Positions 5,034-37,766 of a stretch of DNA of 48,858 nucleotides are shown here, one piece after another (the first letter of the stretch is position 1; each line of letters starts with the position of its first letter). The DNA is taken from positions 1-48,858 of the forward strand of contig CAVVWZ010000088.1 in NCBI GenBank assembly GCA_963752035.1, given 5' to 3'. The position numbers and the translations under genes are program-made. The notes below the pieces were generated by a model. It made no database searches and was not told the origin of the DNA. It worked only from the letters and a program-made list of their open reading frames with translations. This DNA is from an uncultured delta proteobacterium. Lineage in GTDB: Bacteria; Desulfobacterota; WTBG01.

Positions 5034-5081
5034 TTTCTTAATTCCTGTTGATTAAGATTATAAAATTCACATTAGTTTCAA

Positions 5082-22300: not shown

Positions 22301-22621
22301 ACCCACAAACTTCTCAATAAACCCTTCGTAGCTGGTTATTACCCGGGCGATTTCTCCGAAGATTTGATTCATGATCTCTTTTACCTCTTCCGGATCAAGA
22401 CGTGTGGAGAGATCGGTGTAACCGGAGAGGTCTGAAAAGAGAATGGTAAGATACTTTCTTTCCTGGGCAGATTTTCCTGCCTTCCATTCTGGTCCTGCAG
22501 TTCTATCCAACTGGATGCCACACGAACCACAGAATTTATTTTGTGGCAGGTTACTGGATCCACAGCGGTAACAGGGTAAAAAAACCTGATTTTCAGTCTG
22601 GTAAAGGGAGCGCTTCATCAT
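19316..22621 (-). CDS. multidomain signalling protein: zinc ribbon + class III adenylate/guanylate cyclase + AAA/STAND ATPase + TPR-like repeats
   Basis: 1101 aa. It starts with CYRCGSSNLPQNKFCGSCG. The cyclase core follows (LTILFSDLSGYTDL...KFVGDAVMALFGVP...GETINLASRLE). Then comes the P-loop IRGDAGTGKSRLVEEF and a long helical repeat C-terminus. Confidence 0.9.
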   Translation of the reverse strand: MMKRSLYQTENQVFLPCYRCGSSNLPQNKFCGSCGIQLDRTAGPEWKAGKSAQERKYLTILFSDLSGYTDLSTRLDPEEVKEIMNQIFGEIARVITSYEGFIEKFVGDAVMALFGVPKAHEDDPVRAILAARHIHQAVAQLEGKIGHRLSMHSGISTGLVITGEVNLKQGTHGISGETINLASRLEDLAPVGEIVVDQVTCQQAEGYFTFESLGPASIKGKSQPIKAYRVLAPKNRPRKVHRIHGLRAQLIGRKRELSRLQRAAEQYLLGKGSIISIRGDAGTGKSRLVEEFKHSLPSQRLTWREGHAFAYAKNIPYFLFRDLLKDTFQLQETDSLATLKEKIESGTGSLCTGTEQVVPYLGSLFGISYPGIPALDPEVFKSRLQKAIKSILETIATRGATVFCMEDLHWGDPSSLELLKDIMASTHYPALFICTFRTSFSLETGGKLNIANRTQHEILLEDLTKAESQEMLQSLLKTPSIPGGLEMLIQNKIEGNPFYLEEILNSLIESELLIKSNGNWQLLRPIHKADIPLTIQGVISARTDRLDEDAKQVLQYASVIGRSFDLSILSHITQGKKSITCHLDNLVRLGLIRVNTSLPDGNYDFRHALTQEVVYNSLLKKERQEIHERTGLIIEKLFPQHLCEKSEILAFHFSKGKSLFKAVEYLMQSGTKSLNRYAVVESHQYYKEAYQLLTGADFEPDAVKGMLIQLLNSWTPVYYFRGNFRDLEKLLTQYITLAESLEDKERCGMFYVCLGISFWAAEKFNQSYHYLQKALRHGEATGNKQITSHAYAWLGWTSAELGLPIEALYCGEKARKMSVDVNWEHYPNYHSWDSDGYAYWVLGACSQIRALGKTLLEHGESISSIRCTTWGHTLNAWSSMISGDFTSAIGYNKLALKTSTDPLYTQFPRLCLGMSYVSQGDFDKAKEPLEEVLDFSRRLGCDYIGTPAQCFLSVVLVAEGKFAQGFKMLKGAQKKWQEQNAPWRYTFSELIFGELFSSLAGRKTPISFASIVKNIGFIAKNLPFARQKAENHYKRALVSAQKVGAKAMEGQAHLGLGKLYSVTGKRDKARDCFSSAIELFEECEAETFLRKAREARSSLVL

Positions 22622-23067: not shown

Positions 23068-25512
23068 ATGAAGGATTATTCTCAAAGATTTGCAGCTTTT
23101 GTTCTCAGGTGGAGATTTATTTTTATCTTACTGTCCGCTTCCCTGACCCTCTATTTTTTATTCAGCTTGAGAAATCTTTCCATTCAGACCAGCCTCGGTG
23201 ACCTCACCCCCCAGAAACACGCTTACATGGAAGTCCAGAAGGAGTTGATGTATATTTTCGGGGGCCTCAACCAGGTGTCCATCGGACTGGTGGTTAAGGA
23301 AGGTGATGTCTTCACCAAAGATACCCTGGATAAGGTTGTCCGGATTACTAAAAAGCTGTACCTGCTGGATGGTGTGAATCCGGGGAGGATTGCCTCACTT
23401 TCTGCCCGAAAGATCAAAAATACCCGTGCCTATGAAGACGGCTTTGAGGTAAAGCGTCTCATGCGCCAGCCCCCTGAAACCCCTGCTGAAATGGCAGGGC
23501 TTAAAGAGAGTATTATTCGCAATCCCATGTTATACGGCCCCCTGGTTTCTAAAGACCTCAAGGCAACCCAGATTATGGTTGACTTTGAACAGGAAGTGAC
23601 CTCCAGAAGAATCTTCAGGGAACTCGAAGAGATTGTCGCATCCGAGAGGGACAGTAACACAGAGATTCATATTGCGGGCCGGCCTATCTTAGAGGGATGG
23701 ATGGATTACTATCTTCCTAAAATGGGGTGGATATTTGGTGCGACGGGATTAATCATGATTTTTCTTCTCTACCTTGCCTTCCGGTCCAAGCGCGGCATTG
23801 TCCTGCCCTTTCTTTCGGCATCCATGGCGACTATCTGGGGATTGGGTGCTACTACCCTTCTGGGATACCATATGGATCCAGCTACTATCCTGGCCCCTTT
23901 TTTCATCCTGTCTTTGGGCATCAGTCACTCTGTCCAGTTTATTAAACGGTACTACGAGGCAATCAAGCAAAATCCACTGGATCGAAGATTGGCCGCACAG
24001 GAAACATTGTCACACCTCTTTGTTCCGGCACTGGTCTCTCTGGTGACGGACGGCATCGGATTTATTTCACTCTTTATTGTTCCCCTGGCTGCAATCAAGA
24101 GTATGGCACTGGCATCAGGGATCGGTGTTTTGAGTATTTTCTTTACCACCGTCACCTTTATACCCCCTGTTCTCTCCTATCTTCCTAAACCGAAACGGTT
24201 AGAGGTTGAGAGAGAGGAACGGCCTAATATACTCGATTCCTTTCTCACCCGGATTGCTTCTCTCATTCACAGACCCGCATTACGGTGGACCACCTTTGGT
24301 GTCTTTATCCTCCTGGCGGCCGTGGGTATGATCGGTGCATCCCAACTGGTGGTAGGGGATAATGAACCGGGCTCTGCCACACTCTATCCGGATTCTCCCT
24401 GCAACAGTGCAGAGAGAATTATCAATGACAAATTTACGGGAACCAACCCTTATTTTATTATGGTTGCAGGTGAGGGTGAGGAGTCCTTAATCAGCAGCGA
24501 AGTGTTAAAAGAGATGGAGTCCCTTCAAAACTATCTCCTGACAAACGTTCCCGAGGCGGGCTACGCCCTTTCCCTTGCCGATTATATCAAGGGACTTAAC
24601 ATGGTAATGTTTGGGGGTAATCCCGACTATTTCACCATTCCTGATAAGAACGGCACGATTGCGGAATACCTCTTTCTCTATTCAATTTCTGGATTCCCCG
24701 GGGATTTTGATCCCGTGGTGAGTCCCAATTTTCAGTATGCCAACATTAAGGTTGATTTCAAAGACCACAAATCAGACACTATCAAGAAGACACTCTTTTT
24801 CACCAGGGAGTGGATTGAAAAATTCCACAAGGTGGAGGCCGTCGATTTTCTCTTTGCAGGGGGCGTAATGGGGACACTGGGTGCGGTCAATGAGATAATA
24901 GAAGAGACCTTGCCGGTCAGTGTCCTGCAGGTTGGTCTGCTGGTTTTTATCTGTGTAGCCCTGGCCTACGGCTCGGCGGTGGGAGGACTGCTCCTGCTCA
25001 TTCCCCTGCTCTTCAACGTGCTGTTTGTTTTCGGCATCATGGGATTAAGTGGCATGAGTCTTACCATAGAGACCCTGCCGGTGGCCGCCCTCAGCATAGG
25101 GCGTGGAGTGGATTACAGTATCTATGTGGCAACACGAATCAGGGAAGAGCTCCAGTCGAATCAGGGCAAAACTCTGGGGGAGGCTACCCAGCGTGCCCTG
25201 GTGACCTCCGGCAAGGCAGTCTTTTTTACCGGTGCCACCATCGCCATTGGTGCACTGACCTGGGTTTTTTCTGATATCAGACTTCATGCACGCCTTGGAT
25301 TAACCCTGGGAAGTCTAACCCTGTTGAACATGGTTGGTGCTCTCATCCTGCTGCCCCTTTTTCTCCGTATCTTTAATCCCTCATTTATCTATAAGAGCCG
25401 TGGAATGAAGAACACCGTTGCAAAAAATGATCGCTTGAAGGAAGAGAGTGTGGACATACAAGAGAGGGGGAATGTCATTGAGGCCTGTAAGGAACAGCGG
25501 GTGTCACTCTAG
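23068..25512 (+). CDS. RND-superfamily exporter of the MMPL / HpnN-like type
   Basis: 814 aa, starting at an ATG behind an AGAGGAGAAA RBS. It has two six-helix bundles separated by large soluble loops and an SSD-like segment (ILAPFFILSLGISHSVQFIKRY). This architecture is typical of MMPL/HpnN lipid exporters. Confidence 0.88.
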   Translation: MKDYSQRFAAFVLRWRFIFILLSASLTLYFLFSLRNLSIQTSLGDLTPQKHAYMEVQKELMYIFGGLNQVSIGLVVKEGDVFTKDTLDKVVRITKKLYLLDGVNPGRIASLSARKIKNTRAYEDGFEVKRLMRQPPETPAEMAGLKESIIRNPMLYGPLVSKDLKATQIMVDFEQEVTSRRIFRELEEIVASERDSNTEIHIAGRPILEGWMDYYLPKMGWIFGATGLIMIFLLYLAFRSKRGIVLPFLSASMATIWGLGATTLLGYHMDPATILAPFFILSLGISHSVQFIKRYYEAIKQNPLDRRLAAQETLSHLFVPALVSLVTDGIGFISLFIVPLAAIKSMALASGIGVLSIFFTTVTFIPPVLSYLPKPKRLEVEREERPNILDSFLTRIASLIHRPALRWTTFGVFILLAAVGMIGASQLVVGDNEPGSATLYPDSPCNSAERIINDKFTGTNPYFIMVAGEGEESLISSEVLKEMESLQNYLLTNVPEAGYALSLADYIKGLNMVMFGGNPDYFTIPDKNGTIAEYLFLYSISGFPGDFDPVVSPNFQYANIKVDFKDHKSDTIKKTLFFTREWIEKFHKVEAVDFLFAGGVMGTLGAVNEIIEETLPVSVLQVGLLVFICVALAYGSAVGGLLLLIPLLFNVLFVFGIMGLSGMSLTIETLPVAALSIGRGVDYSIYVATRIREELQSNQGKTLGEATQRALVTSGKAVFFTGATIAIGALTWVFSDIRLHARLGLTLGSLTLLNMVGALILLPLFLRIFNPSFIYKSRGMKNTVAKNDRLKEESVDIQERGNVIEACKEQRVSL

Positions 25513-25609
25513 ATGAGCGGGGATCTGATTCAGCATAGAGTTCCTGTTTGTCAGGATTAGTTTTATTAGATAAAGGTTGCCGGAATTATTTAAACGAGGA
25601 CAGAAAACG

Positions 25610-26359
25610 ATGGAAATGAAAAAAGATGTGCACTTGAGTGCACAGGACCTGCTGGAAATGGTACAGATGAAACCGGGTGCTATCGGGGACTATACCATCA
25701 TCCCCGGACCCCGGGAGCGGTTGGAGGCGGTTATTGCAAAACTGGACAATCCGGCTGAGGATTTTTCATACATGGAACACACCATGTATACGGGTTCCTA
25801 CAAGGGAACAAAGGTCACCGCAGTTAACGGCGGGCTCTACAGTCCCCAGAGTGCGATTATGGGGGAGGTGGTGTGCGCTGCCGAAACGAAACACATTATT
25901 CGCACGGGTTCCTGCGGTGCCCTGTGTGAAGATATTTCCATAGGGGACCTGGTCATTGTGACAGGTGCAGTAAGGGGTGATGGGACAACCCCCTATTATG
26001 TGCCGAGCAACTTTTCTACCGTTTCTGATGTGAGGGTAACCAGTGCCCTTTTGAACGCGGCAGAGATGCTGGGAGTGAAGTGTCATCTGGGAGTGGTATG
26101 GACCACTGATGCACTTCTTAAAGAGACGAAAGAACTGGTTGAAGAGATGAGAAGATTGCAGGTTAAGGCAGTGGATATGGTTTCCTCCACCCTGCTCACG
26201 GTAGCCCAACTCTATGGGGTAAAGGCAGGAACTATTCTGGCGGTAAGTGACAATCTCATTACCGGAGAGCTGGGCTTTATGGATCCCAAATACTATGAGA
26301 CTGAAGAGGCAATGATAGATATTGCCCTCAAAGCTGTGACACTATTGGAAGGGAAGTAA
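25610..26359 (+). CDS. nucleoside phosphorylase, PNP_UDP_1 (hexameric DeoD/Udp-like) family
   Basis: Track ORF 25577..26359, with a likely ATG at 25610. Motifs are IIPGPRERLEAV, YTGSYKGTKVTAVNGGLYSPQSAI, RTGSCGAL and VDMVSSTL. Substrate cannot be read from the sequence. Confidence 0.85.
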   Translation: MEMKKDVHLSAQDLLEMVQMKPGAIGDYTIIPGPRERLEAVIAKLDNPAEDFSYMEHTMYTGSYKGTKVTAVNGGLYSPQSAIMGEVVCAAETKHIIRTGSCGALCEDISIGDLVIVTGAVRGDGTTPYYVPSNFSTVSDVRVTSALLNAAEMLGVKCHLGVVWTTDALLKETKELVEEMRRLQVKAVDMVSSTLLTVAQLYGVKAGTILAVSDNLITGELGFMDPKYYETEEAMIDIALKAVTLLEGK

Positions 26360-26360
26360 G

Positions 26361-27383
26361 ATGGATCTTCCCCCCCTGGCCTGGTCGGTATCGCTTAAGG
26401 ATGATAAACTCTACATCCTCGATGAGACAAAACTTCCGGAAGAAGAGGTGTATATCACTGCCCCTACCTACCTGGAAGCGGCTCAGGCAATAACTGACAT
26501 GAAGACCAGGGCCTTTGGGCAGGTCTTAACCCTGTTCTACGCCTTCCTGTTGACGGCACGCCACAACAGGGGAGAACAGGCTGAAGTGATTCTTCCCCGG
26601 CTGAGAAAAGTTGGCTGGACCCTTGAAAATGCCCGTCCCACCTTTGCCTTTAAGGATTTAACTAAACAGGTGCTCACCTGGGCTGAACAGGCAGAGGAGG
26701 AAGGGAAGGATATTAGCTCCTGCCTGGAGACTAGCATTCTTGGATTTCTTGACAAACTCAGGATGCTCCGTTTAAAGAGAGCCGAGTATGCATCTTCTCT
26801 GCTTGAGGATGGTGATACACTCTTAACCCACTGCAATGTGAGTGGTGAGATGGTATTAATCGGCCGGGCCTGTAAGCAGGCAGGTAAATCCATTCGGTTC
26901 TATGCTACGGAGACCAGACCATATTTCCAGGGACGTTTGACTGCCTGGGAGCTGGCTGAGGACGGTTTTGACGTAACCATTGTACCGGACAATGCGGTGG
27001 GCAGCCTTCTTTCAGAAGGGCGCTGCCAAAAGGCACTTGTGGGATCAGACCGCGTAGCAGGCAATGGCGATGTGGTTAATAAGGTGGGAACCTTCCAGGT
27101 AGCAGTGGCCGCAAAGAAATTTCGGATTCCTTTCTATGTGCTGGTGCAGGAGCCCGGCAGTACAGCCACCGGGGCGGAGATTCCTATTGAAGAACGGGAT
27201 ATGCAGGAGGTACTCTTTTACAAGGGTAAGCGGCTCTATCCTGAAGCAGTAAACGGTTATTACCCTGCCTTTGATCTTACTCCTGCAGGGTATGTTACAC
27301 GTTTGATCAGCTTTGGCGGTATTATTGATCCCCGGGAACTTCCTCAGGCATGGAAAAAAGTTCAAGGAGCAATGAGAAGTTAA
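26361..27383 (+). CDS. MtnA-like sugar-1-phosphate isomerase (eIF-2B alpha/beta/delta fold)
   Basis: 340 aa. It has LYILDETKLPEE at the N-terminus, LLTHCNVSGE (catalytic Cys position), ETRPYFQGRLTAWEL and GSDRVAGNGDVVNKVGTFQVAVAAKKFRIPFYVL (catalytic Asp position). It starts 2 nt after the phosphorylase stop. Confidence 0.85.
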   Translation: MDLPPLAWSVSLKDDKLYILDETKLPEEEVYITAPTYLEAAQAITDMKTRAFGQVLTLFYAFLLTARHNRGEQAEVILPRLRKVGWTLENARPTFAFKDLTKQVLTWAEQAEEEGKDISSCLETSILGFLDKLRMLRLKRAEYASSLLEDGDTLLTHCNVSGEMVLIGRACKQAGKSIRFYATETRPYFQGRLTAWELAEDGFDVTIVPDNAVGSLLSEGRCQKALVGSDRVAGNGDVVNKVGTFQVAVAAKKFRIPFYVLVQEPGSTATGAEIPIEERDMQEVLFYKGKRLYPEAVNGYYPAFDLTPAGYVTRLISFGGIIDPRELPQAWKKVQGAMRS

Positions 27384-27395
27384 CTGAGCAACATC

Positions 27396-27480
27396 GAACG
27401 TCCAACATTGAATGTTGAATGAAAAGAAAAAAGAATGACGAAAGACGAACAATCGAGTGACGAATGAAAAAAACAGGAGG
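27396..27480 (+). repeat. post-stop purine-rich repeat, copy A
   Basis: GAACGTCCAACATTGAATGTTGAATGAAAAGAAAAAAGAATGACGAAAGACGAACAATCGAGTGACGAATGAAAAAAACAGGAGG. It begins 13 nt after the MtnA-like stop and is nearly identical to copy B at 29836. Confidence 0.8.
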
Positions 27481-27537
27481 AATGAGTTGCGGGTTGCATG
27501 TACAAGTTTTACCTCTCGGATGAGATTCTATCATAAT

Positions 27538-27626
27538 GTCATTGCGAGGAAATGAAATGACCGAAGCAATCTCATGACACGTTAAAAACTGAGATTGCCA
27601 CGCTCCCTTTGGTCGCTCGCAATGAC
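27538..27626. repeat. nested palindromic element GTCATTGCGAG ... CTCGCAATGAC
   Basis: The outer arms are GTCATTGCGAG (27538-27548) and CTCGCAATGAC (27616-27626). The inner arms are GAAGCAATCTCA (27563-27574) and TGAGATTGC (27590-27598). A half copy (GAGATTGCTTCG...CTCGCAATGAC) sits at 19250-19287. Confidence 0.7.
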
Positions 27627-27811
27627 CGGTAGGGAACCCTTTTGAACATTTGATATTTAAAATTTATTTGGAATTTGGGTTTTGGTATTTTGATTTTATA
27701 CCTGTACTTCTCTGTGCTCTCTGTGGTTTAAGTTTTTAATTTAGGCATTCTAGGCAATTTAGCTCATTTTAGGCATTTGTACTAATTAACATTTAAGAAG
27801 GAGGAGAACCA

Positions 27812-29269
27812 ATGAAAGTACTGTTTTTACAACCCCCTTTAGGTTCGTGGGTAACCTGGGGGAATCACAAACCGATTAATGTGAGCCACGCTCAAATGTC
27901 AGCCTGTGTCAGGACGTGGGTGCCGGAGGCAGAGGTTAAGGTGCTGGACTGCCGTGCTTTAGACCTGGATACAGAGAAGATGGTTGCAGCCATTCAGGAA
28001 ATTGATCCGGATCTTATCTACATGGGTGATGCCTACCAGATGACGGAGACCGTAGCCATTGTTCCCCACTACCAGAACGCAGCCCGGCGGATAAAAAAGA
28101 CACGTCCTGACACCCCCATTTGTGTGGGAGGATTTTACGTCGCGGCCAATTATCAGGCTGTTGCGGATGAAACACCCGAGTTTGATTTTGTCCTCGCCGG
28201 GGAGCCGGAAATGACCTTCACCGAACTGTGCAAAGAACTGGTTAAGCCCGAGCCGGACCTCCCTTCAGTGAAGGGATTGATGTACCGTCAGAATGGGGAT
28301 ATCAAACTCAATGAATACCGTCCCCTCATGAAAAATCTGGACGAGCTTCCCATGCCAGCCTATGACCTGTTCCCCATGGATAAATATCTCGGCTATGGTT
28401 CGTTGCCTCACTATCAGGAAATATTCACCTCCCGGGGATGTCCCTTCGGTTGCAGCTTTTGTATCGACTGGGTTACCATGGATCCTCGCGGTAACAGGGA
28501 CTGGCAGAAATACAGAATCAAGTCAGCTAAACAGGTAGTGGATGAACTGGAGCTTTTGGAAAATGAGTATGGGGTAGAGTACGTTCATATTTTTGATTTA
28601 AATTTCAATCCTAAGAGAAGCAGGATTGAAGCGTTCCTCAAAGAGATGCAGCAGCGGAAGCTTAAGATGAAATACTGCTTTCTGGGTAATGCACATTCAT
28701 TTATCCGGGACAGCGATTTGCTTGAAGACCTGCATAAAACGGGCTTTGTTACGGGCGTCTTTGGTCTTGAGGTGGCAGATGAGGACGAACTGAAAAAGAT
28801 GCATAAGGGGATTACCCTTGATGAGGTCCGGGAGGTTACGGCCCAGTTTAGAAAATATGGTATTACATCGGTGATTACCTGGATGATTGGATTTCCCGAT
28901 GATGATGAGAAGATAATAAAACATCGCTTGAACACGCTGGATCAGATCGATCCGGACGTCATGGCCCTGCAGATGTTGCTGCCGGTGCCCGGCATGCCCA
29001 TGTATGAGGAGTGTGTTCCCTTTATTGAGGAACATGACCTTACCAAGTGGGACTTTCACCAACCGGTAGTTCGCACCAAGCATTTAACCAGAGAACAGCT
29101 TGGAAGCCTGGCAGCCTGGGCCAATAAGGAATTTTACACTAAGAAAGACCGTGTTCAACGTGTCCTTCAAAGTGAAGTTTTGTCTCCTTACAGTAAGGCC
29201 ATCTTTAAGAGCTACATAGCCAGTATGGATGAATACACCACTAAGGCAGCCCAGGATGTGGCTGTATAA
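27812..29269 (+). CDS. B12-binding-domain radical SAM protein (class B)
   Basis: 485 aa, with an ATG behind an AAGGAGGAG RBS. The N-terminal cobalamin-binding-like Rossmann segment (KVLFLQPP...IYMGDA...ICVGGFY) is followed by the radical SAM core with SRGCPFGCSFC. Confidence 0.88.
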   Translation: MKVLFLQPPLGSWVTWGNHKPINVSHAQMSACVRTWVPEAEVKVLDCRALDLDTEKMVAAIQEIDPDLIYMGDAYQMTETVAIVPHYQNAARRIKKTRPDTPICVGGFYVAANYQAVADETPEFDFVLAGEPEMTFTELCKELVKPEPDLPSVKGLMYRQNGDIKLNEYRPLMKNLDELPMPAYDLFPMDKYLGYGSLPHYQEIFTSRGCPFGCSFCIDWVTMDPRGNRDWQKYRIKSAKQVVDELELLENEYGVEYVHIFDLNFNPKRSRIEAFLKEMQQRKLKMKYCFLGNAHSFIRDSDLLEDLHKTGFVTGVFGLEVADEDELKKMHKGITLDEVREVTAQFRKYGITSVITWMIGFPDDDEKIIKHRLNTLDQIDPDVMALQMLLPVPGMPMYEECVPFIEEHDLTKWDFHQPVVRTKHLTREQLGSLAAWANKEFYTKKDRVQRVLQSEVLSPYSKAIFKSYIASMDEYTTKAAQDVAV

Positions 29270-29343
29270 GGATTGTCTTTTTTCACCAGTGGAACACGAG
29301 TTGGGAGGGATAAGAAATTAAAAAGAATCTGCTCACCTTCGGG

Positions 29344-29790
29344 GTGCCCGGGAGGGATTTCCCGGGATTCCTGGAAGAACACTATCCTCAACGGGAGTGG
29401 GCTCTTCTTTCGGCTGAAAGCAGGCCCCATGAATCTGAGCTGGGGAAAAGGTTAGAGACATTTACCGTCAGGGGCTATGAGACTGTCGTAATAACTGACA
29501 ACATGGTTGGGTTCTGTCTTGCGAATAAGGGGGTGGAAGGTGTTTTTCTCTACTACCAGCGGATGGCTGATGACGGGGCGCTGTGCCAGGGAGGTTCACT
29601 CCTCATTGCGGTTCTAGCTCAGGAACTTGGTATTCCCTGTAACCTTTCACCGACGGATTTTGATCCGGAAACAGCGGACATAAGCAGTGACCTCAGTTTT
29701 GCGGGAGATGTCCTTGCCACCGGAGGGGTTAAGAGCTATGTGCCCCGGGTAGACACGGTGCCGATGAACTACATTTCGAAGGTGTGGTAA
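29344..29790 (+). CDS. small paralog of the C-terminal half of MtnA/eIF-2B-fold isomerases, apparently non-catalytic
   Basis: ESRPHESELGKRLETFTVRGYETVVITDNMVGFCLANKGVEGVFLYYQRMADDGALCQGGSLLIAVLAQELGIPCNL aligns by eye to [34 protein letters not shown]...[34 protein letters not shown] of the neighbouring full-length gene. The Asp of GxDR is replaced (YYQRMA). The start codon is uncertain. Confidence 0.5.
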   Translation: MPGRDFPGFLEEHYPQREWALLSAESRPHESELGKRLETFTVRGYETVVITDNMVGFCLANKGVEGVFLYYQRMADDGALCQGGSLLIAVLAQELGIPCNLSPTDFDPETADISSDLSFAGDVLATGGVKSYVPRVDTVPMNYISKVW

Positions 29791-29835
29791 AAATAGGAGC
29801 CAGAAGACAGGAGTCAGAAATCAGAATAAAAAAAT

Positions 29836-29928
29836 GAACGTCCAACATCGAATGTTGAATGAAAAGAAAATAAGAATGACGAATGACGAACAATCGAGTG
29901 ACGAATGACGAATGAAAAAACAGGAGTG
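29836..29928 (+). repeat. post-stop purine-rich repeat, copy B
   Basis: GAACGTCCAACATCGAATGTTGAATGAAAAGAAAATAAGAATGACGAATGACGAACAATCGAGTGACGAATGACGAATGAAAAAACAGGAGTG. It lies 46 nt after the 29790 stop and forms a direct repeat with copy A. Confidence 0.8.
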
Positions 29929-30146
29929 ATGCAAGAATAGGTTACATTTTAAGGCTGGCAAGTAACAAATCATGTTAAGTTGGTTACATTAGTATATGGA
30001 AATGGTTTAGCCTCACTTTTCTTTGAGTACTGTTGGCTTAAGTTAACCAATAGAACAATTCAACGTAATTTCAACCAATAAAACAATTGAGCTATTTCAT
30101 CTCCGTTTTAATTCTGACTCTGAATTCTGTCTCCTGGAGAAAGGCT

Positions 30147-31154
30147 ATGGATGCTAAAAAAATAAAGCAGTTACAGGAAGAAATCATAAGGGTAGGCAGG
30201 GAAGCATACCAGCGGGGCCTTATCGTTGCACGGGGTGGCAATATAAGTGCCAGGTTGAGTGGGGAGGAGTTTTTAATGACTGCCCACACTGCTGCACTCG
30301 GTTTCCTCACCCCCGATGATTTTGTGACAGTGGACCTCAACGGTCAGGTAGTTAAGGGGGACGGTAAACCCTCCACAGAGACAAAACTCCATACAGCCAT
30401 TTATCGGGATACCGAAGCGGGGGCAGTCGTGCATCTTCATCCCCCCTATACGAACGTCCTGGCTGTCAGAGGAGTTGAACTAAAACCGATGACCTTTGAA
30501 TCCTCTCTTTTCCTGGGGCCTACCACACCTACGGTTGCCCAGGACAGTCCTTCTGTCACCAGGCTTGATGGTGTGATCGAGGCCTTAAACTTGAGCAACA
30601 TCATTATTCTTAAAGAGCATGGGACAGTAGCGGTGGGAGACAACCTCTGGGATGCATTTTTTCTTACCGAGATTTTAGAAGAAGCGGCTTTGATGTCTTA
30701 TGTAGATAAAACACTCGGGGTGTCTACACCGGAGAAACAGGAAAATAAACTGCCTGCAAAAGACGAGACATCGGTGACCTATGCTGTTTTCTCCAAAGAA
30801 CACATTGATAAGATTGTAACTCTTGTCAACCAGGATGAGGAGGCCCAGCGTCTCGGCAAGTCCACCCACTTAACCGTCAACTATGCCATTAAGCTGACTG
30901 ATACCAGTCAAGTGTACAACTTTCATTTTCAAGAGGGCACGATTGTCAAGGTGAGTAATGATGAAGATGCCGATTTTATCCTTGCGGGTAAACGGAAGCA
31001 GTGGATAGCTGTATTTAATGGGCTGATTGATCCCTTTGCTGCTACTACGCAAAAAAAACTTAAGCTGCAGAAGGGAAGTTTAGGAGACCTGTCCAAGTGG
31101 TATCCTCCTTTTTACAGAGTCTTTGCACTCTGGAAATATGCTCCTGTTGAGTGA
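30147..31154 (+). CDS. class II aldolase/adducin-domain protein fused to a C-terminal SCP2-like lipid-binding domain
   Basis: Track ORF 30087..31154, with an ATG at 30147 (MDAKKIKQLQEEIIRVGREAYQRGLIVARGGNISARL). Aldolase signatures are STETKLH, VVHLHPPY and KEHGTVAVG. The last roughly 120 aa (ADFILAGKRKQWIAVFNGLIDPFAATTQKKLKLQKGSLGDLSKW) look like an SCP2/sterol-carrier fold. Confidence 0.82.
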   Translation: MDAKKIKQLQEEIIRVGREAYQRGLIVARGGNISARLSGEEFLMTAHTAALGFLTPDDFVTVDLNGQVVKGDGKPSTETKLHTAIYRDTEAGAVVHLHPPYTNVLAVRGVELKPMTFESSLFLGPTTPTVAQDSPSVTRLDGVIEALNLSNIIILKEHGTVAVGDNLWDAFFLTEILEEAALMSYVDKTLGVSTPEKQENKLPAKDETSVTYAVFSKEHIDKIVTLVNQDEEAQRLGKSTHLTVNYAIKLTDTSQVYNFHFQEGTIVKVSNDEDADFILAGKRKQWIAVFNGLIDPFAATTQKKLKLQKGSLGDLSKWYPPFYRVFALWKYAPVE

Positions 31155-31168
31155 GGGAAAAGATAGTT

Positions 31169-32662
31169 ATGGCTGGTACTGACTATAAAATGTGGATTGG
31201 TGGTGAGTGGTGCGAAAGTGCGTCGAAAGCATCTATTGACAGTATCAATCCCGCCACTTCAGAGGTGCTTGGCAGCATCCCCCGGGGTGGGGAAGCTGAT
31301 GCTCACAAGGCAGTACAGGCTGCCCGGGCTGCATTTGATCAGGGTGAGTGGCCCCGGATGAGCTACCAGGACCGGGGCGACGTCTTACGGCAGATTGCCC
31401 AGCTTGTAAGGGAAAAGGCAAGTGACCTTGCGAGGTTGGAGACACTGGACAATGGCAAGTCCATCAAAGAGAGTACTCTTATCGATATTCCTACCGCGGC
31501 CGATACCTTTGAGAGTTTTGCCGGCATGGCTGGTGAGCTTAAAGGGGAGACCATTCCCGTTACCGCACCGGCAGTGAGCTATACACGCTACGAGCCGATC
31601 GGTGTTGCTGCCCAGATTATACCCTGGAATTACCCGCTGCTCATGGCGGCCTGGAAACTGGCACCTGCCCTTATCACGGGAAATACGGTTGTGCTGAAGC
31701 CTTCCACCCTTACTTCCCTCACCGCCCTGGAACTGGCTAAGCTGATGGACGAAACCGATCTTCCACAGGGGGTGGTGAATGTTGTTACCGGCCCGGGTTC
31801 GGAAATTGGCACGGCATTAGCTACCAGTCAGCAGGTTGATAAGATTGCCTTGACGGGGAGTACCGAGACAGGGCGGAAGGTTATGGGCCTTGCCGCTTCC
31901 AACATGAAAAAGATAACCCTGGAGCTGGGGGGGAAATCTCCCACCATCGTCTTGAAGGATGCTGACCTGGAGGCTGCTCTCAATGGGACACTGGCAACAA
32001 TCTTTCTCAACCAGGGACAGATGTGCGTGGCGGGTTCCCGGTTACTGGTCCAGGAGGATATTCACGAAGAGTTCGTTCAAAGATTAGTGGCCAAAACAGA
32101 GAAGATTAAACTGGGTAATGGTCTTGATCCGGAGACCACCATGGGACCCCTCATTTCTAAAGAGCATCGGGCAAAGGTGTTGAACTATATTTCCACGGGC
32201 ATAGAAGAAGGGGCACAGCTGGTTGCCGGGGGAAAGGTTCCTGAAGGTGAGGCATTTGAGAAGGGATTTTTCCTTGAGCCTACTATCTTTGATAAGGTTG
32301 ACAACAGTATGGAAATAGCGCAGGAAGAGATCTTCGGACCGGTGCTTTCAGTGCTCACCTTTGCAACTCTGGATGAGGCTGTTAGCCTGGCAAATGCCAC
32401 CCGCTACGGATTGGCAGGGAGTGTCTGGACAAAAGACCTCTATCAGGCCAACTACATTGCTGAACGTGTGCGGGCCGGTACCATCTGGATTAATACCTAC
32501 GGTAGCTTCTTCAATGAGGTGCCATTCGGGGGTTATAAGGAAAGTGGCCTGGGGAGAGAACTGGGAAAGGCGGGTCTTAAGGAATATACCGAACTGAAGA
32601 GTATTACCATGGACATGTCACCAGGTCAACGGTCGTTAATAACAAAGTGGTATGGATTGTAA
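31169..32662 (+). CDS. NAD(P)-dependent aldehyde dehydrogenase
   Basis: Track ORF 31151..32662, with a likely ATG at 31169. It has the classical ALDH motifs (IIPWNYPLLMAAWKLAPAL, ITLELGGKSP, QGQMCVAGSR, EEIFGPV). The upstream reading frame overlaps the aldolase stop. Confidence 0.9.
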   Translation: MAGTDYKMWIGGEWCESASKASIDSINPATSEVLGSIPRGGEADAHKAVQAARAAFDQGEWPRMSYQDRGDVLRQIAQLVREKASDLARLETLDNGKSIKESTLIDIPTAADTFESFAGMAGELKGETIPVTAPAVSYTRYEPIGVAAQIIPWNYPLLMAAWKLAPALITGNTVVLKPSTLTSLTALELAKLMDETDLPQGVVNVVTGPGSEIGTALATSQQVDKIALTGSTETGRKVMGLAASNMKKITLELGGKSPTIVLKDADLEAALNGTLATIFLNQGQMCVAGSRLLVQEDIHEEFVQRLVAKTEKIKLGNGLDPETTMGPLISKEHRAKVLNYISTGIEEGAQLVAGGKVPEGEAFEKGFFLEPTIFDKVDNSMEIAQEEIFGPVLSVLTFATLDEAVSLANATRYGLAGSVWTKDLYQANYIAERVRAGTIWINTYGSFFNEVPFGGYKESGLGRELGKAGLKEYTELKSITMDMSPGQRSLITKWYGL

Positions 32663-32877
32663 AAACCAGCAGAGTGACAAAGGCACAGAAGGCACAAAAG
32701 AGGGAGCAATTCCCACTCCTTAGAGTTTGTCTTAGTGAAACTTCGTGATTTAGTTTTTGATTGTTTGGCATTTGAAATTTGTATGTTTTTCGTACTTTTC
32801 GATGCTATCGTAGTTAGAGTTTTTGAGTTTACTCATTTTAGGCAATTTAGAAATTATTCTTGATAAAGGAGAGGTTT

Positions 32878-34314
32878 ATGAAACAGTGCCGTATTTTTCT
32901 AGTAGTGAGTGTGTTCCTTTTTCTGTCTGTTTTGCTGGTTAGCATCCCTGTGCATGCTTCACTGCTTGATGGTGAGAAGTTTACGCTTTCAGGATTCCTG
33001 AAAAACGCAACTTCCATAAACTCGAGCAGCGCAGACAACATGGATCAATTCTTGAAGATCCGGAATACTGCCCAACTGGAACTGGAGTATCAATTCACGG
33101 ATAATTTCCATTTCTTTACCATTGTGAGGGGTTGGTATGACAGCGCTTATGATGCTGAGAGTAAATGGCGCAAGGGTGACAACCGGAAGAAAATGAGTCG
33201 TGTGAGAGGAACGGACTGGCTGAGAGAGTGTTATGTCGACTACTATTCTGAAACACTGGACATTCGGGTAGGAAAACAGCAGGTGGTCTGGGGCACTGCG
33301 GACGGGGTGAAGATTCTGGATATTATCAACCCAATAGACTATCGTGAATTTAGCCTTGAAATCAACAGGGGACTTGATGCTGATGTTAAAATTCCCCTCT
33401 GGATGACCAAGGTAGAGTATGCTCCCACGGTGAACGGGACACTTCAGCTCCTGATCATTCCTGATTATGAAACAAATTTCCTTGCACCTCCCGGTGCCCC
33501 CTATACGGCCCGGGCAACAAATTCTGGTGATATGCAGCTGGATGTATTGAGAGATTTTGGAGCAGGGGTCAATATTGCAAATAAGAAACCGGGGAGAAGC
33601 CTTGACAACACGAAGATTGCTCTGAGATGGCTGGATGTTATAAAGGGATTTGAGTACACCCTCAATTATTTCCATGGTTACAGCTATGCACCATCACGGT
33701 ATTTCATAGGTATTGAACCTTTTGGGATACCCTTTTTGCCGGGTGCTGAAGCCTACTTTGAGGACAGGTATCCACAGACGGAAACTGTGGGGTTCTCGTT
33801 TTCAAAGGCAATGACCAAGGGGTTCCTGAGAGGATATAACTTCAGGGGTGAATTTGCCTGGGTCCACAACAGTACTTCCGGGTATGGGACGAGAGACAAC
33901 CAGGTTGGGGTGGCAAAGGTTGATCAGTACAACTACGTGCTGGGCATTGATAAGTATTACTGGACCAATTGGCTCTTTAGCTTTCAGTTCATACAATTCT
34001 GTCTGGAGAGAGATACGGAGGATGGATACGATTATATTTCAGGTCCAACCTTCAATACGGTTGATCAGTTTGAGACCATTTTGAGTCTCAAGATTGCGAC
34101 CGATTTCATGCATGAACGGTTAAAACCGGGGATTCTTACCCAGTGGGGTGCCAATAATAACGACTGGTCATTAAACCCCAGGGTGGAATTCGAACTGCGG
34201 GACTACCTGATTCTCACCTGGGGGATGAACGCCTTCTGGGGACCCAGTGACAGCCTGTTTGGATACTTTAGAACCAGGGATTCCATGTACTTGGAGGTGA
34301 AGCTTGGATTTTAA
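32878..34314 (+). CDS. outer-membrane beta-barrel-type protein, DUF1302-like
   Basis: The ATG at 32878 follows an AAGGAGAGG RBS, and there is a signal peptide (MKQCRIFLVVSVFLFLSVLLVSIPVHAS). RECYVDYYSETLDIRVGKQQVVWGTADGVKILDIINPIDYREF matches the remembered DUF1302 signature. The C-terminus is aromatic (LGF). Confidence 0.72.
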   Translation: MKQCRIFLVVSVFLFLSVLLVSIPVHASLLDGEKFTLSGFLKNATSINSSSADNMDQFLKIRNTAQLELEYQFTDNFHFFTIVRGWYDSAYDAESKWRKGDNRKKMSRVRGTDWLRECYVDYYSETLDIRVGKQQVVWGTADGVKILDIINPIDYREFSLEINRGLDADVKIPLWMTKVEYAPTVNGTLQLLIIPDYETNFLAPPGAPYTARATNSGDMQLDVLRDFGAGVNIANKKPGRSLDNTKIALRWLDVIKGFEYTLNYFHGYSYAPSRYFIGIEPFGIPFLPGAEAYFEDRYPQTETVGFSFSKAMTKGFLRGYNFRGEFAWVHNSTSGYGTRDNQVGVAKVDQYNYVLGIDKYYWTNWLFSFQFIQFCLERDTEDGYDYISGPTFNTVDQFETILSLKIATDFMHERLKPGILTQWGANNNDWSLNPRVEFELRDYLILTWGMNAFWGPSDSLFGYFRTRDSMYLEVKLGF

Positions 34315-34359: not shown

Positions 34360-34398
34360 AGAAGGGCCCCGCTTAAATTGGTGGGGCCCTTCTTGTTT
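34360..34398 (+). terminator. Rho-independent terminator hairpin of the 23068-34314 cluster, and target site of the intron
   Basis: An 11-bp GC-rich stem pairs AGAAGGGCCCC (34360-34370) with GGGGCCCTTCT (34383-34393) around a 12-nt loop. A TGTTT tract follows, immediately before the intron 5' GTGCG. Confidence 0.75.
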
Positions 34399-35004
34399 GT
34401 GCGCCCGGCAGGGCGCACCTACTTGGAGGTGCAAGTCCTCTACCGACCCGACAGGGGGAACGGTTAGCTTAACGGCAAGGGTGTCCATCGTGAGGTGGAA
34501 TCTGAAGGAAGCCGCAGGCAAAGCGCTGGCCTGACGAACAGGAATCGTATATGAGGCTGTTACGCTGGATGAGGAGGCAAATATCTCTAAAGTCCAATAC
34601 CTGTACGGAGAGCGTGGCAGTATATACGGCAGGTATAAGCGTGAAGGTGGGTGCGCATTACCCGGGGAGATCTGTCAATCAGCCTTGTGCTACGGTCATC
34701 GAGAGGTGACAGGATAGATTGGCAGAAGTCAGCAGAGGGCATAGTAGGTTCAAGTAATTGAGCTGAAGGCCTGAACCTGGTGCTTATGTATTGGATCGCT
34801 TTTCCGAGTGTTTTGAGCAGATGCCTCGAAAGGGGGCCTAAAGCTGGAAGTAACGGACGGAATCTGTGAGGTAAGGCTGGGCGCTTATAGAACACCGGGC
34901 ACTGAGGTCAATGATAATACATTGCAACAGGAACCGCCGTATACGTGATCCGTACGTACGGTGGTGTGGGAGGACGGAGGGGGTAACCCCTCCTCCTACC
35001 CGAT
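34399..35004 (+). mobile_element. group II intron RNA, class C (IIC), ORF-less (no reverse transcriptase in domain IV)
   Basis: The 5' end is GTGCGCCCGGCA. Long stretches match my memory of the Oceanobacillus IIC ribozyme (GTTAGCTTAACGGCAAGGGTGTCC, GGAATCTGAAGGAAGC, TATGAGGCT, TTACCCGGGGAG, CAGAAGTCAGCAGA). Domain V lies at 34934-34964 (8 bp, 2-nt bulge, 4 bp). Domain VI lies at 34968-35001 with a GTAA tetraloop and a bulged A at 34998, 7 nt from the 3' end, which reads ...CCCGAT. Total length is 606 nt, with no ORF that looks real. Confidence 0.88.
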
Positions 35005-35031
35005 ATGGTTGCATGTGAGGCTAAAATTATT

Positions 35032-36276
35032 TTACGCAGATGCTTTTTCTCCTGCAAGATAGCCGGTAGAGAAAGCCTGCTGGAGGTTATATCCACCGCT
35101 CTTGCCACAGCCATCAATTATTTCTCCGGCAAAATACAATCCGGGTACCACCCGTGACTCCATGGTCTTAGAGTAAATCTCTTTTGTTGCTATGCCCCCG
35201 TTTGTAACCATGGCCTCCTCTACAGAGAGGGAACCTGTTACCGTTAAGGGGAAGAACTTTAATAAGCCTGCAATCAGCAACCTTTCTTTTTTAGTAATTT
35301 GATTTACTCGTTTGCACATTTCGATATTCAGCACCTGCATAAACACAGAAACCAGCCGTTGAGATAAAAATTTTCTTATAACAGTTTTTATCTGGAGATT
35401 CCGCCTCGTGGTACATTCACTCAGCAATTGTGCCTGCAGCTGTTCATGGTTCACCCCGGGAATAAAATCAATGGAAAGCACTAGTTTTTCACTATCTCCC
35501 AATGCAGATACAACCGTTGAGCTTACATCTAAAACTAAAGGCCCTGAAATCCCATAATGGGTAAACAGTAATTCTCCTTTCGGGGAGACAGTTTTTTTAC
35601 TACCACATTTTATGGTAATACAGACATCATTTAGGGAAAGTCCCTGTAATTGTTTGATCCAAGGCTCTTTTATTCTCAAAGGTATAAGTGCCGGTCTCAA
35701 ATCAACAACGGTATGACCCAGTGTTTCGGCAATGCGGAAGCCATCACCTGATGATCCTGTTTTCTTATAGGATACCCCGCCTGTCGCTAAGATAACTTTT
35801 TCGGCGCAGATCATAGTGTTGTTGCCTCGATCTAATGCCAATTGAAATAAGCCATCCTTTCTTTCCAGCTTGACAACACGCCCACTGTATAAGATTTTAA
35901 CTTTATTCTTTACCAGGTATTCCCCTAAGACACGTACCACAGAAAACGCCTTATTGGTAACAGGGAACACCCTTCCCCTATCTTCTGTAGTAAAGTTGAG
36001 TCCTTGTGCTTCAAAAAACTGAATGAGGCTATGATTGCGGAAGGCATAAAACGCGGGCTTTAAAAACATGCCTTGTTTGCCGAAATTTTTTATAAATACC
36101 TCAATGGGGGAGGTATTGGTTATGTTGCACCTCCCGTTGCCGGTAAGCAAAATCTTTTTACCAATAACACCATTTCTTTCAATTACTATTACGTTTTTCT
36201 TAAGCTGGCTCGAGCGTATTGCAGCCATACTGCCTGCTGGACCAGCTCCAACCACGGCAACATCAAAAATATCCAT
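35032..36276 (-). CDS. HI0933-family NAD(P)/FAD-dependent flavoprotein
   Basis: 414 aa. It has DVAVVGAGPAGSMAAI, then LLTGNGRCNITN, and a C-terminal GGYNLQQAFSTG. This is a typical HI0933-like (BaiN-type) layout. Confidence 0.88.
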   Translation of the reverse strand: MDIFDVAVVGAGPAGSMAAIRSSQLKKNVIVIERNGVIGKKILLTGNGRCNITNTSPIEVFIKNFGKQGMFLKPAFYAFRNHSLIQFFEAQGLNFTTEDRGRVFPVTNKAFSVVRVLGEYLVKNKVKILYSGRVVKLERKDGLFQLALDRGNNTMICAEKVILATGGVSYKKTGSSGDGFRIAETLGHTVVDLRPALIPLRIKEPWIKQLQGLSLNDVCITIKCGSKKTVSPKGELLFTHYGISGPLVLDVSSTVVSALGDSEKLVLSIDFIPGVNHEQLQAQLLSECTTRRNLQIKTVIRKFLSQRLVSVFMQVLNIEMCKRVNQITKKERLLIAGLLKFFPLTVTGSLSVEEAMVTNGGIATKEIYSKTMESRVVPGLYFAGEIIDGCGKSGGYNLQQAFSTGYLAGEKASA

Positions 36277-36287
36277 CCGGTAGATCT

Positions 36288-37199: not shown

Positions 37200-37563
37200 A
37201 TGGTTTGGTGTACAGATGATTTATAGGGAAATAATACGGTCACCAATTTTTCTGTAACCCATGAGACACGGGTAGAGTTCCAGGAGAGCTCATCGGCATC
37301 AGTTCATTTTCTCAAGCACGTCTTACCTTCCTGGGAAGCTGGTAAGAAAAGGCATAAGACATTACACGGTGTCTCTTAAAAGCTATAACCCTGCAGCTCT
37401 GCTACAGGGTTATATACCTTACAATAAACATTTGGACAATCATTATTGTAATGAATAACTAATCATATAACTCCATCAGTTTTCCACAACACAAGGGAAT
37501 GTGATTACCCTTCTTATGCAGGTGACACTTACCCCCAAGCTGTATTTTGTTATGGCTTCTGTC

Positions 37564-37592
37564 TTGACACCCAATTTTACTTTTCCTATACT
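37564..37592 (+). promoter_or_regulatory. candidate sigma-70 promoter for the 37767 gene
   Basis: TTGACA (37564-37569), an exact 17-nt spacer, then TATACT (37587-37592). It lies about 175 nt upstream of the ATG at 37767. Confidence 0.4.
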
Positions 37593-37766
37593 TATCCCAT
37601 CAGAAACGAGTTCTTGTCAATTAAAGAGATACATTGATTTAAAATAGATTTATACATAGTATGTCTTTAGAGAGTGCAAAAGAGATACTTTGTGCTGTAA
37701 CCAAATGAGTAAAACTTCCACCATCAGTAAAGCCCATCCTACAAGTCAATTAACTAAGAGGATTGC

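Follow-up and report, generated by a model that had tools for sequence, protein, structure and literature searches.

We describe here a conserved gene cassette in a 48,858-nucleotide stretch of DNA (hereafter the window) from an uncultured delta proteobacterium (GenBank assembly GCA_963752035.1, contig CAVVWZ010000088.1), where it lies in a plus-strand operon at positions 23068 to 34314. Its core comprises six genes, coding for a B12-binding radical S-adenosylmethionine (SAM) enzyme, a nucleoside phosphorylase, an MtnA-like sugar-1-phosphate isomerase, a protein corresponding to one half of MtnA, a class II aldolase fused to an SCP2 domain, and an aldehyde dehydrogenase (ALDH). These six genes are tightly linked across phyla. 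We tentatively favor, as plausible though short of probable, the interpretation that the cassette trims the ribose of a 5'-C-linked nucleoside adduct made by the radical SAM enzyme, leaving an acid of the form R-CH2-COOH.

The fusion of the aldolase to the SCP2 domain defines a coherent family of proteins of about 334 amino acids (aa), which a scan with one genome per species recovered in 349 species-level genomes belonging to Thermodesulfobacteriota, metagenome-assembled genomes (MAGs) labelled Omnitrophota or Planctomycetota, Fibrobacterales, Deferribacterota, and others. The 80 best-scoring of these 349 loci, a taxonomically skewed set in which every genome is metagenome-assembled or otherwise uncultured, were compared. 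Aldolases from Thermodesulfobacteriota, the window's own group, are 67 to 74% identical to that of the window and those from Omnitrophota or Planctomycetales 40 to 45%; Fibrobacterales also occur among the labels. The open reading frames (ORFs) of 92 fetched loci (cited below by number where needed, e.g., L001) were labelled by best phmmer match at E < 1e-5, the queries being the window proteins and the proteins from five annotated loci, and neighbors were counted over the 42 loci in which the aldolase gene is flanked by 8 kb or more on each side. The isomerase and the ALDH occur in all 42, the phosphorylase in 39, and the radical SAM enzyme in 38; the half-MtnA was labelled in 23, which is probably an undercount, as this protein is short and divergent. 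Other recurrent neighbors code for an acyl carrier protein (ACP; 34/42), a PF04199 cyclase (33/42), a FadD-like AMP ligase (31/42), ketosynthases (KSs; 30/42), and an SRPBCC protein (26/42). DUF1302 and DUF1329 proteins were found in 5 of the 42 loci each and a resistance-nodulation-division (RND) pump in 4.

The radical SAM enzymes of the cassettes form one orthologous group. Starting from the radical SAM side, all three sampled homologues (54, 53, and 40% identity) sit in the same cassette, and together with the presence of the one orthologue in 38 of the 42 loci this establishes that the radical SAM gene is an integral member of the conserved cassette and no passenger. It also codes for the most conserved cassette protein in 8 of the 11 compared loci that carry it: at L003, L007, and L009 it is 60 to 61% identical to that of the window, where the aldolase is 48 to 50% identical, and even in the Omnitrophota-type loci where it is least conserved (L005, L008, L066, and L092) the identity is 36 to 40% over the full length. 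An earlier note on this DNA had reasoned that, were only the phosphorylase, isomerase, aldolase, and ALDH genes conserved, the cluster would shrink to a salvage operon beside unrelated genes. The radical SAM gene proved to be conserved with these four and the RND and outer-membrane genes did not; that description is thus rejected as far as the radical SAM gene, a member of the conserved unit, is concerned, and it holds for the RND and DUF1302 genes. Two loci, L009 (between cell-wall and unrelated genes) and L091 (on a Deferribacterota contig), carry the bare six-gene cassette with no other related genes.

The cassette occurs in three recurrent architectures. In the window type, the order is RND pump, phosphorylase, isomerase, radical SAM enzyme, half-MtnA, aldolase-SCP2, ALDH, DUF1329, DUF1302, and DUF2284, with a divergent gene for a cyclase-AAA-TPR protein. 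The second has a ligase, phosphorylase, isomerase, half-MtnA, aldolase, ALDH, and radical SAM enzyme, followed by a DUF2621 protein, an ApbA-like reductase, two KSs, ACP, cyclase, and SRPBCC protein. The third runs from two KSs through the radical SAM enzyme, ACP, cyclase, SRPBCC protein, ketoreductase, and an Amidohydro_2 protein to the phosphorylase, isomerase, aldolase, ALDH, and ligase. Two Thermodesulfobacteriota loci, L011 and L012, combine KS, ACP, and cyclase genes with DUF1329, and L011 also has DUF1302; the window is a reduced form that lacks KS, ACP, and DUF1329 genes. At L090, L091, and L010, the gene order is radical SAM enzyme, phosphorylase, isomerase, half-MtnA, aldolase, and ALDH.

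Several individual loci depart from these patterns. At L001/L002 (5781 to 15842; 67% aldolase identity), the RND, isomerase, half-MtnA, aldolase-SCP2, ALDH, DUF1329, DUF1302, and DUF2284 genes are present and both the phosphorylase and the radical SAM gene are missing. L090 (LR991655.1, 7658 to 21461), on a 2.5-Mb contig labelled as a Methanoperedenaceae archaeon, bears a complete cassette in which the MMPL and isomerase genes are split, together with DUF1329, DUF1302, and two AMP ligases; its outer-membrane-type genes suggest either horizontal transfer or a mislabelled record. The Fibrobacterales loci L007, L019, and L020 (319 to 19179) have a GRAS-like protein, an FrsA-like hydrolase, two AMP ligases, and an ACP upstream and a 2145-aa protein without a Pfam match downstream. 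An RlmN gene adjoins many Omnitrophota cassettes; it passes the RlmN cut-off and was treated as a housekeeping neighbor.

Pfam and NCBIfam profile searches bore out all domain calls of the earlier note. Scores are given below with the cut-off of the NCBIfam model or the Pfam gathering score; no operon protein reaches the cut-off of any named NCBIfam equivalog family. The radical SAM enzyme (27812 to 29269, plus strand) matches the B12-binding domain PF02310 at 33.5 bits (cut-off 32.1) and the radical SAM core PF04055 at 63.8 bits (cut-off 29.5). Its CxxxCxxC motif reads GCPFGCSFC, and the combination of an N-terminal B12 domain and this core places it in class B. All 24 of its NCBIfam matches lie far under their cut-offs, the best being BchE (181 bits, cut-off 481.35), and it belongs to none of the characterized class B subfamilies with models (BchE, HpnJ, HpnR, PhpK, the ladderane-associated model, etc.); against the ladderane-associated TIGR04072 it reaches only 78 to 88 bits, with a cut-off of 360. 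Of the proteins with solved structures, those nearest to it are the cobalamin-dependent methylases CysS and TokK.

The phosphorylase (25577 to 26359, plus strand) is a PNP_UDP_1 protein (Pfam E 1.5e-35) of the hexameric Udp/DeoD-like kind. The nearest NCBIfam models are Udp and DeoD (142.8 and 112.4 bits, both under the cut-offs), and models of 5'-methylthioadenosine (MTA)/S-adenosylhomocysteine nucleosidases score 55.5 and 36.4 bits. Among solved structures the best match is the uridine phosphorylase of Streptococcus pyogenes (3QPB; 127.5 bits), and the hexameric MTA phosphorylase of Sulfolobus solfataricus scores 82.7 bits. Neither the MtnP-type MTA phosphorylase nor the pairing of MtnN with the kinase MtnK, as used in the dihydroxyacetone phosphate (DHAP) shunt, was found, the cassette having this Udp/DeoD-like enzyme and no kinase. 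The window phosphorylase is 53 to 58% identical to its counterparts at L003, L005, and L007 to L009 and 43 to 45% identical to those at L090 and L091.

The isomerase (26361 to 27383, plus strand; IF-2B, Pfam E 1e-52) retains the catalytic cysteine (in THCN) and aspartate (in GSDR) of MtnA in an alignment to 1T9K and 1T5O. In this respect it is of the MtnA/DrdI type used in the DHAP shunt, although it stays under the cut-offs of the equivalog models NF004326 (244.7 bits, cut-off 271) and a second one (208.1 bits, cut-off 279); the subfamily model TIGR00524 is passed (192.1 bits, cut-off 185.85). Directly after the cysteine motif there is a 7-residue deletion common to all 18 aligned cassette isomerases from different phyla, which would fit a substrate with a different 5-substituent. 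The half-MtnA (29344 to 29790, plus strand; 148 aa) consists of the C-terminal domain only: it matches IF-2B partially, at profile positions 130 to 270, and aligns to MtnA residues ~188 to 330. Because the catalytic aspartate is replaced by glutamine and the cysteine-bearing half is absent, it is predicted to be incapable of acting as an isomerase by itself. It is the fastest-evolving member of the cassette and is absent from the Amidohydro_2-type architecture; a 133-aa protein encoded there was considered as a diverged version and rejected (hhalign probability 0.2%).

The aldolase-SCP2 fusion (30147 to 31154, plus strand; 335 aa) is of the FucA/DrdA type. Its ORF opens at 30087, and the true start is the ATG at 30147, which is preceded by a GGAG ribosome-binding site and coincides with the start of the homologues. 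Residues E78, H96, H98, and H158 are invariant in 79 family sequences, providing the histidine triad and catalytic glutamate of class II aldolases such as Ald2/DrdA; the metal-binding glutamate corresponds to Glu76 of DrdA, the 5-deoxyribulose-1-phosphate aldolase. An AlphaFold (AF2) model of high confidence (pLDDT 92.8, pTM 0.88) matches Thermus thermophilus FucA and DrdA (6BTD; E 1.8e-14, root mean square deviation [rmsd] 1.9 A) in Foldseek. An MtnB-type dehydratase was also considered and rejected, as the MtnB models match the N-terminal half only, the aldolase models match over the full length, and an ALDH gene always follows. The SCP2-like domain that the earlier note had seen at the C terminus was confirmed: PF02036 scores 31 bits against a gathering score of 21.3, the family profile matches 2CX7 at E 2.5e-6, and the C-terminal 131 residues modelled alone (pLDDT 93.5) adopt the SCP2 fold, with T. 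thermophilus SCP2 (2CX7) as the best match in the PDB (TM score 0.80, rmsd 1.8 A). The other best matches are likewise all SCP2 domains, namely, AF1534, UbiJ-SCP2, those of alkylsulfatases, and human SCP2. The ALDH (31151 to 32662, plus strand; PF00171, 617.9 bits, E 1e-185), whose start overlaps the aldolase stop, is an NAD(P)-dependent, nonacylating enzyme of the ALDH1/2/betaine aldehyde dehydrogenase (BADH) class. It scores 632.8 bits with the BADH model (cut-off 668.6), and its best solved relatives are ALDH2, BADH, and phenylacetaldehyde and retinal dehydrogenases.

Taken one by one, these enzymes could also be read as plain nucleoside catabolism, in which a nucleoside would be converted via ribose-1-phosphate and ribulose-1-phosphate to DHAP and glycolaldehyde and the latter oxidized to glycolate. 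The phosphorylase is indeed closest to uridine and purine nucleoside phosphorylases, and the aldolase reaches 82.2 bits with the model of the haloarchaeal ribulose-1-phosphate aldolase. However, all models stay under their cut-offs, and such a route has no need of a B12 radical SAM enzyme, an SCP2 domain, a dead half-isomerase, a ligase/ACP/KS set, or transport neighbors of the lipid type, which makes it very improbable.

For the tentatively favored trimming of an adduct, we infer what the substrate is, which way the pathway runs, what reaction the radical SAM enzyme catalyzes, and what the SCP2 domain does, as follows. The radical SAM enzyme would make a nucleoside bearing a hydrophobic group R joined to C5' through a carbon-carbon bond, most simply a SAM-derived 5'-deoxyadenosyl adduct. 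The phosphorylase would strip the base to give the ribose-1-phosphate, which the isomerase, possibly paired with the half-MtnA, would convert to the ribulose-1-phosphate. The aldolase would then release DHAP and R-CH2-CHO, with R held by the SCP2 domain, and the dehydrogenase would oxidize the aldehyde to R-CH2-COOH. The net outcome would be a two-carbon (carboxymethyl) extension at the cost of SAM, with DHAP returned to central metabolism. In the window and some related loci, the HAE3-type RND pump would work with the DUF1302 protein to carry the product or a lipid derivative across the envelope, joined in relatives by the LolA-like DUF1329 protein; in most other lineages, the FadD-like ligase would pass the acid to the ACP/KS set.

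This proposal draws support from the four trimming enzymes, which are of the right families and have intact catalytic residues, from the gene order at L090, L091, and L010, which follows the proposed order of steps, and from the joint loss of the phosphorylase and the radical SAM gene at L001/L002. The radical SAM product is favored as the substrate, rather than a by-product, of the trimming enzymes because the cassette is tied to one radical SAM orthologue and can stand alone, because its genes are specialized (the SCP2 fusion, the isomerase deletion, the dead half-isomerase, and the unusual type of phosphorylase), and because a FadD-like ligase and an ACP usually follow. That the substrate would be hydrophobic is suggested by the SCP2 fold, the long-chain-type ligase, the ACP/KS neighbors, and the HAE3/DUF1302/DUF1329 transport genes resembling the Ame system (see below), and the FadD-like ligase, ACP, and KS neighbors would likewise fit a hydrophobic acid product. 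A more specific version is possible but doubtful, namely, that the cassette represents a widespread, undescribed use of SAM as a two-carbon donor, in which the cobalamin radical SAM enzyme would adenosylate an unactivated carbon of a hydrophobic acceptor and trimming would leave R-CH2-COOH, to be exported or used as an ACP-bound primer. As a speculation, the substrate radical might attack adenosyl-cobalamin in the way that class B methylases use methyl-cobalamin.

A number of observations weigh against this proposal. Its weak point is that methylation is what class B enzymes, the closest solved relatives CysS and TokK included, are known for, making adenosyl transfer here conjectural; the known adenosylating radical SAM enzymes, MqnE and HpnH, belong to other families, and an MqnE-like gene in the same window is unrelated to the cassette. 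The best match of the phosphorylase is a uridine phosphorylase, and the ALDH class is broad and uninformative on chain length. Many polar residues of the SCP2 domain are invariant (D295, Q302, R324, and others), and the domain might rather accommodate a phosphopantetheine or CoA arm or have a part in assembly. Finally, the co-occurrence sample is dominated by Omnitrophota-type MAGs, so that the counts are not phylogenetically independent.

The same enzymes would also suit dedicated by-product disposal, with the radical SAM enzyme doing an unrelated job, such as methylation, and the other five genes forming a DHAP shunt plus an acetaldehyde or methylthioacetaldehyde dehydrogenase that clears 5'-deoxyadenosine (and MTA) and salvages their carbon in the form of DHAP and acetate. 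In its favor, the enzymes are those of the established DHAP shunt, radical SAM enzymes are inhibited by 5'-deoxyadenosine (PMC6079011), methylation is the typical activity of class B enzymes, and the ALDH is close to the acetaldehyde/betaine-aldehyde types. Disposal nonetheless leaves unexplained the SCP2 fusion, whose residues are invariant family-wide, the dead half-MtnA and the deletion in the isomerase, and the FadD-like ligase/ACP/KS neighbors, and it sits poorly with the Udp/DeoD-like nature of the phosphorylase. The salvage genes are, moreover, tied to a single radical SAM orthologue and not to radical SAM genes generally, and in the bare cassettes five of the six genes would handle the waste of one enzyme. 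Anaerobes of this kind encode many radical SAM enzymes, and a private disposal route for just one of them is therefore hard to justify. We consider this explanation unlikely.

The frequent presence of ligase, ACP, and two adjoining KS genes raises the alternative of a small-molecule starter-unit factory, in which the radical SAM enzyme would modify a free nucleoside or sugar phosphate, for instance by C-methylating the 5' end of 5'-deoxyadenosine or MTA, and trimming would free a short unusual acid for the ligase to load onto the ACP as a KS primer. Class B enzymes methylate unactivated carbons, some of them iteratively, with CysS and TokK as the nearest structures here, and in the window-type operon the radical SAM gene lies between those for the isomerase and the half-isomerase. 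An adenylating enzyme that primes a pair of KS and chain length factor-like proteins has a precedent of the cispentacin type; the KS of the cassette neighbors scores 174.9 bits against AmcF, under the cut-off. However, the ligase resembles long-chain ligases more than short-chain ones (427.5 bits to long-chain fatty-acid-CoA ligase versus 244.9 bits to acetate-CoA ligase), a small polar acid would give no reason for the SCP2 domain or the Ame-like hydrophobe export genes, and neither an ACP nor a KS nor an intact ligase is encoded near the cassette in the window or at L003, L009, and L091. On balance, we doubt that the cassette makes such starter units. In the window, a tblastn search for homologues of KS, ACP, cyclase, SRPBCC, Amidohydro_2, and DUF1329 proteins found none, and its only find was a FadD-like AMP-ligase gene at 45002 to 46551 (plus strand), ~11 kb downstream. 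This gene is split over three frames, is 36 to 45% identical to cassette-adjacent ligases of other phyla, and may be a pseudogene or reflect sequencing errors.

The transport genes of the window operon lie outside the conserved unit. The RND transporter (23068 to 25512, plus strand; 814 aa; PF03176, E 3e-34) is of the MMPL/HAE3 type, and the last gene codes for an AmeA-like DUF1302 outer-membrane protein (32878 to 34314, plus strand, ORF from 32860; PF06980, 76.2 bits, E 4e-21) with a Sec signal peptide, MKQCRIFLVVSVFLFLSVLLVSIPVHA. The earlier note had counted both as part of the set, but with 4 and 5 occurrences among the 42 loci, in the Thermodesulfobacteriota group and one archaeal-labelled locus, they are accessory genes of a minority of loci. 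An RND pump adjoins the cassette only at L001/L002, L014, L015, L017, and L090; an 818-aa protein upstream of the L003 cassette, rejected as an RND pump for want of a BLASTP match to that of the window, was taken out of the counts. The DUF1329 gene lies between the ALDH and DUF1302 genes in Thermodesulfobacteriota relatives with long enough contigs and is missing from that interval in the window (32663 to 32859).

These transport genes had been linked to the export of hopanoids or other lipids, the pump being described as HpnN-like. Instead, the best NCBIfam match of the pump is HAE3 TIGR00921 (201.6 bits, cut-off 351.9), with HpnN TIGR03480 at 65.7 bits (cut-off 751.85) and the other HpnN-type model at 39.6 (cut-off 1100), and the RND and DUF1302 proteins, with DUF1329 in relatives, appear to resemble the AmeABCD hydrophobe exporter rather than HpnN. 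AmeA provides the precedent for a DUF1302 outer-membrane protein (PMC6394551), and DUF1302/DUF1329 genes have published fitness links to fatty-ester use in Pseudomonas. By analogy, the transport genes would still point to a hydrophobic cargo, not to hopanoids. In a hopanoid version of the pathway, adenosylhopane would yield phosphoribosylhopane, then the corresponding ribulose form, then C32 bishomohopanal, and finally C32 bishomohopanoic acid for export. The carbon arithmetic would work, aldol cleavage leaving C31-C32 on the hopane; SCP2 is a sterol-carrier fold, HAE3 pumps include HpnN, and the step after HpnG is unresolved, phosphoribohopane never having been observed (PMC13459092). However, the HpnG and HpnJ models (34.3 bits, cut-off 187.1, and 133.7 bits, cut-off 577.6) fare no better than HpnN, and there is no squalene-hopene cyclase or HpnH in the window or in twelve distinct Pfam-annotated loci (the search did not extend to whole genomes). 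Most cassettes have fatty-acid/polyketide-type genes as neighbors, and one is found on an Omnitrophota chromosome of 1.55 Mb. We accordingly give the hopanoid version very little credence.

The operon contains eight plus-strand ORFs between 23068 and 34314, not nine genes as the earlier note stated above a list of eight, and, as that note had it, one intrinsic terminator ends the set: a plus-strand hairpin at 34360 to 34393 with a 14-bp stem, 9 G-C pairs, and a T-rich tail. Other promoter-like and terminator-like sites in the window are no commoner than in shuffled sequence. The operon is less compact than its orthologues, which lack repeat-bearing spacers: the MtnA-radical SAM spacer of 428 bp and that between half-MtnA and the aldolase, 356 bp to the ATG at 30147, contain copies of a dispersed 73-nucleotide repeat at 27396 to 27467 and 29836 to 29908 (91 to 97% identity); small ORFs in these two spacers found no support. 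An inverted copy lies at 41689 to 41738. A 59-nucleotide repeat (27704 to 27762, 32792 to 32850, and 42810 to 42861) precedes the start codons of both the radical SAM and the DUF1302 gene by ~50 nucleotides, and a CGCAAAG-rich repeat has five copies in the window (at 5063, 8976, 19005, 40195, and 42858).

An Rfam scan of the window revealed no cobalamin or SAM riboswitch and no other regulatory RNA, the sole report being an ORF-less group II intron at 34401 to 35010 (plus strand; RF02001, 149.6 bits; RF01998, 66.5 bits; RF00029, 41.1 bits). It starts with GTGCG seven bases past the operon terminator hairpin and has no reverse-transcriptase ORF; insertion right after a terminator is typical of bacterial class C introns. 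The DUF2284 metal-binding protein (37767 to 38546, plus strand; Pfam match), whose gene directly follows DUF1302 at L001, L014, L015, and L017, is displaced in the window by the intron and two minus-strand genes, for an HI0933-like flavoprotein and an RluA-type pseudouridine synthase (region 34400 to 38546). Divergent from the operon is a gene for an 1101-aa protein with Pfam matches to adenylate/guanylate cyclase, AAA_16, and TPR domains (19316 to 22621, minus strand); it is also found at five related Thermodesulfobacteriota loci and is a candidate regulator of the operon. Farther upstream, by 4 to 11 kb, a near-complete futalosine menaquinone set occupies both strands at 11971 to 18995, with MqnC-like (426 bits) and MqnE-like (405.6 bits) proteins, VitK2_biosynth, a futalosine-hydrolase/nucleosidase-like PNP_UDP_1 protein, UbiA, and UbiD; it is not linked to the cassette in relatives.

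A full-text literature search revealed no account of the cassette, nor of an SCP2-aldolase or a B12 radical SAM enzyme acting as an adenosylase, and nothing similar appears in a 2026 review of radical SAM enzymes that modify lipids. We believe that the cassette offers a real chance of new radical SAM chemistry, in hundreds of lineages of uncultured anaerobes, some with very small Omnitrophota genomes. If the proposal is right, DHAP-shunt chemistry would have been recruited, together with a B12 radical SAM enzyme, from waste disposal to biosynthesis, and a testable function would be at hand for a large orphan radical SAM subfamily, for part of the non-anammox "ladderane-like" clusters, and for the SCP2-aldolase fusion. 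Should SAM indeed serve as a two-carbon donor, B12 radical SAM enzymes would gain a new class of reaction, and Omnitrophota, Thermodesulfobacteriota, Fibrobacterota, and Deferribacterota would have a new way of making modified lipids or polyketides. The proposal, if right, could further lead to so far undescribed carboxymethylated lipids or primers that matter for geochemistry or for membranes. Even a role limited to private salvage would leave the cassette unusual in being so strictly coupled to a single radical SAM enzyme.

Among published systems, the antiSMASH "ladderane-like" clusters and the anammox cluster come nearest. The former, which are reported from the same phyla in non-anammox bacteria and whose function is not known, share with the Omnitrophota-type cassette loci two FabF-like KS genes, an ACP gene, and a B12 radical SAM gene; unlike them, the window has neither KS nor ACP, and the described anammox cluster has no nucleoside-trimming genes. 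On the side of transport, AmeABCD of Castellaniella defragrans consists of a DUF1302 outer-membrane protein, a LolA-like DUF1329 protein, a COG4447 protein, and an HAE3 RND pump, of which the AmeA and AmeD components appear to be matched by the window and the AmeB component by the DUF1329 protein encoded between ALDH and DUF1302 in its relatives. However, the window lacks DUF1329, no AmeC-like (COG4447) gene was seen, and the transport genes bracket a biosynthetic-looking cassette and not a monoterpene degradation island.

In concept, the proposed chemistry is reminiscent of HpnH/HpnG in hopanoid synthesis and MqnE/MqnB in the futalosine route, where a radical SAM enzyme makes a carbon bond to C5' and a PNP_UDP_1 enzyme removes the base. 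In contrast to HpnH and MqnE, the cassette enzyme is a B12-binding class B protein unrelated to either, the HpnG, HpnJ, and HpnN cut-offs are not reached, and the ribose would be isomerized and cleaved, whereas hopanoids keep it and the futalosine route cyclizes it; the hopanoid link of the cassette thus remains an analogy.

A close enzymatic parallel in the order of steps is the DHAP shunt (MtnP or MtnK/DrdK, MtnA/DrdI, and Ald2/DrdA), which converts 5'-deoxyadenosine or MTA to DHAP and an aldehyde (PMC6079011). The cassette shares with it a phosphorylase, an MtnA-type isomerase with the catalytic cysteine and aspartate, and a class II aldolase with the glutamate and three histidines of DrdA and a fold close to that of 6BTD. 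It differs in the fusion of the aldolase to SCP2, in the isomerase with its 7-residue deletion and scores under the equivalog cut-offs, in the extra dead half-isomerase, in the Udp/DeoD-like type of the phosphorylase, and in the ALDH present at all 42 loci and the specific B12 radical SAM enzyme at 38 of them. The fluoroacetate pathway of Streptomyces cattleya employs a fluorinase, the phosphorylase FlB, an isomerase, an aldolase, and a fluoroacetaldehyde dehydrogenase, and this same enzyme order turns 5'-fluoro-5'-deoxyadenosine into fluoroacetate. No fluorinase/chlorinase-type (PF01887) gene occurs in any Pfam-annotated cassette locus; the 5'-substituent here would come from the radical SAM enzyme, and the aldolase carries a lipid-carrier domain. 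In both cases, however, a SAM-derived 5'-X-5'-deoxyadenosine would be taken to X-CH2-CHO and, with the final ALDH included, to X-CH2-COOH.

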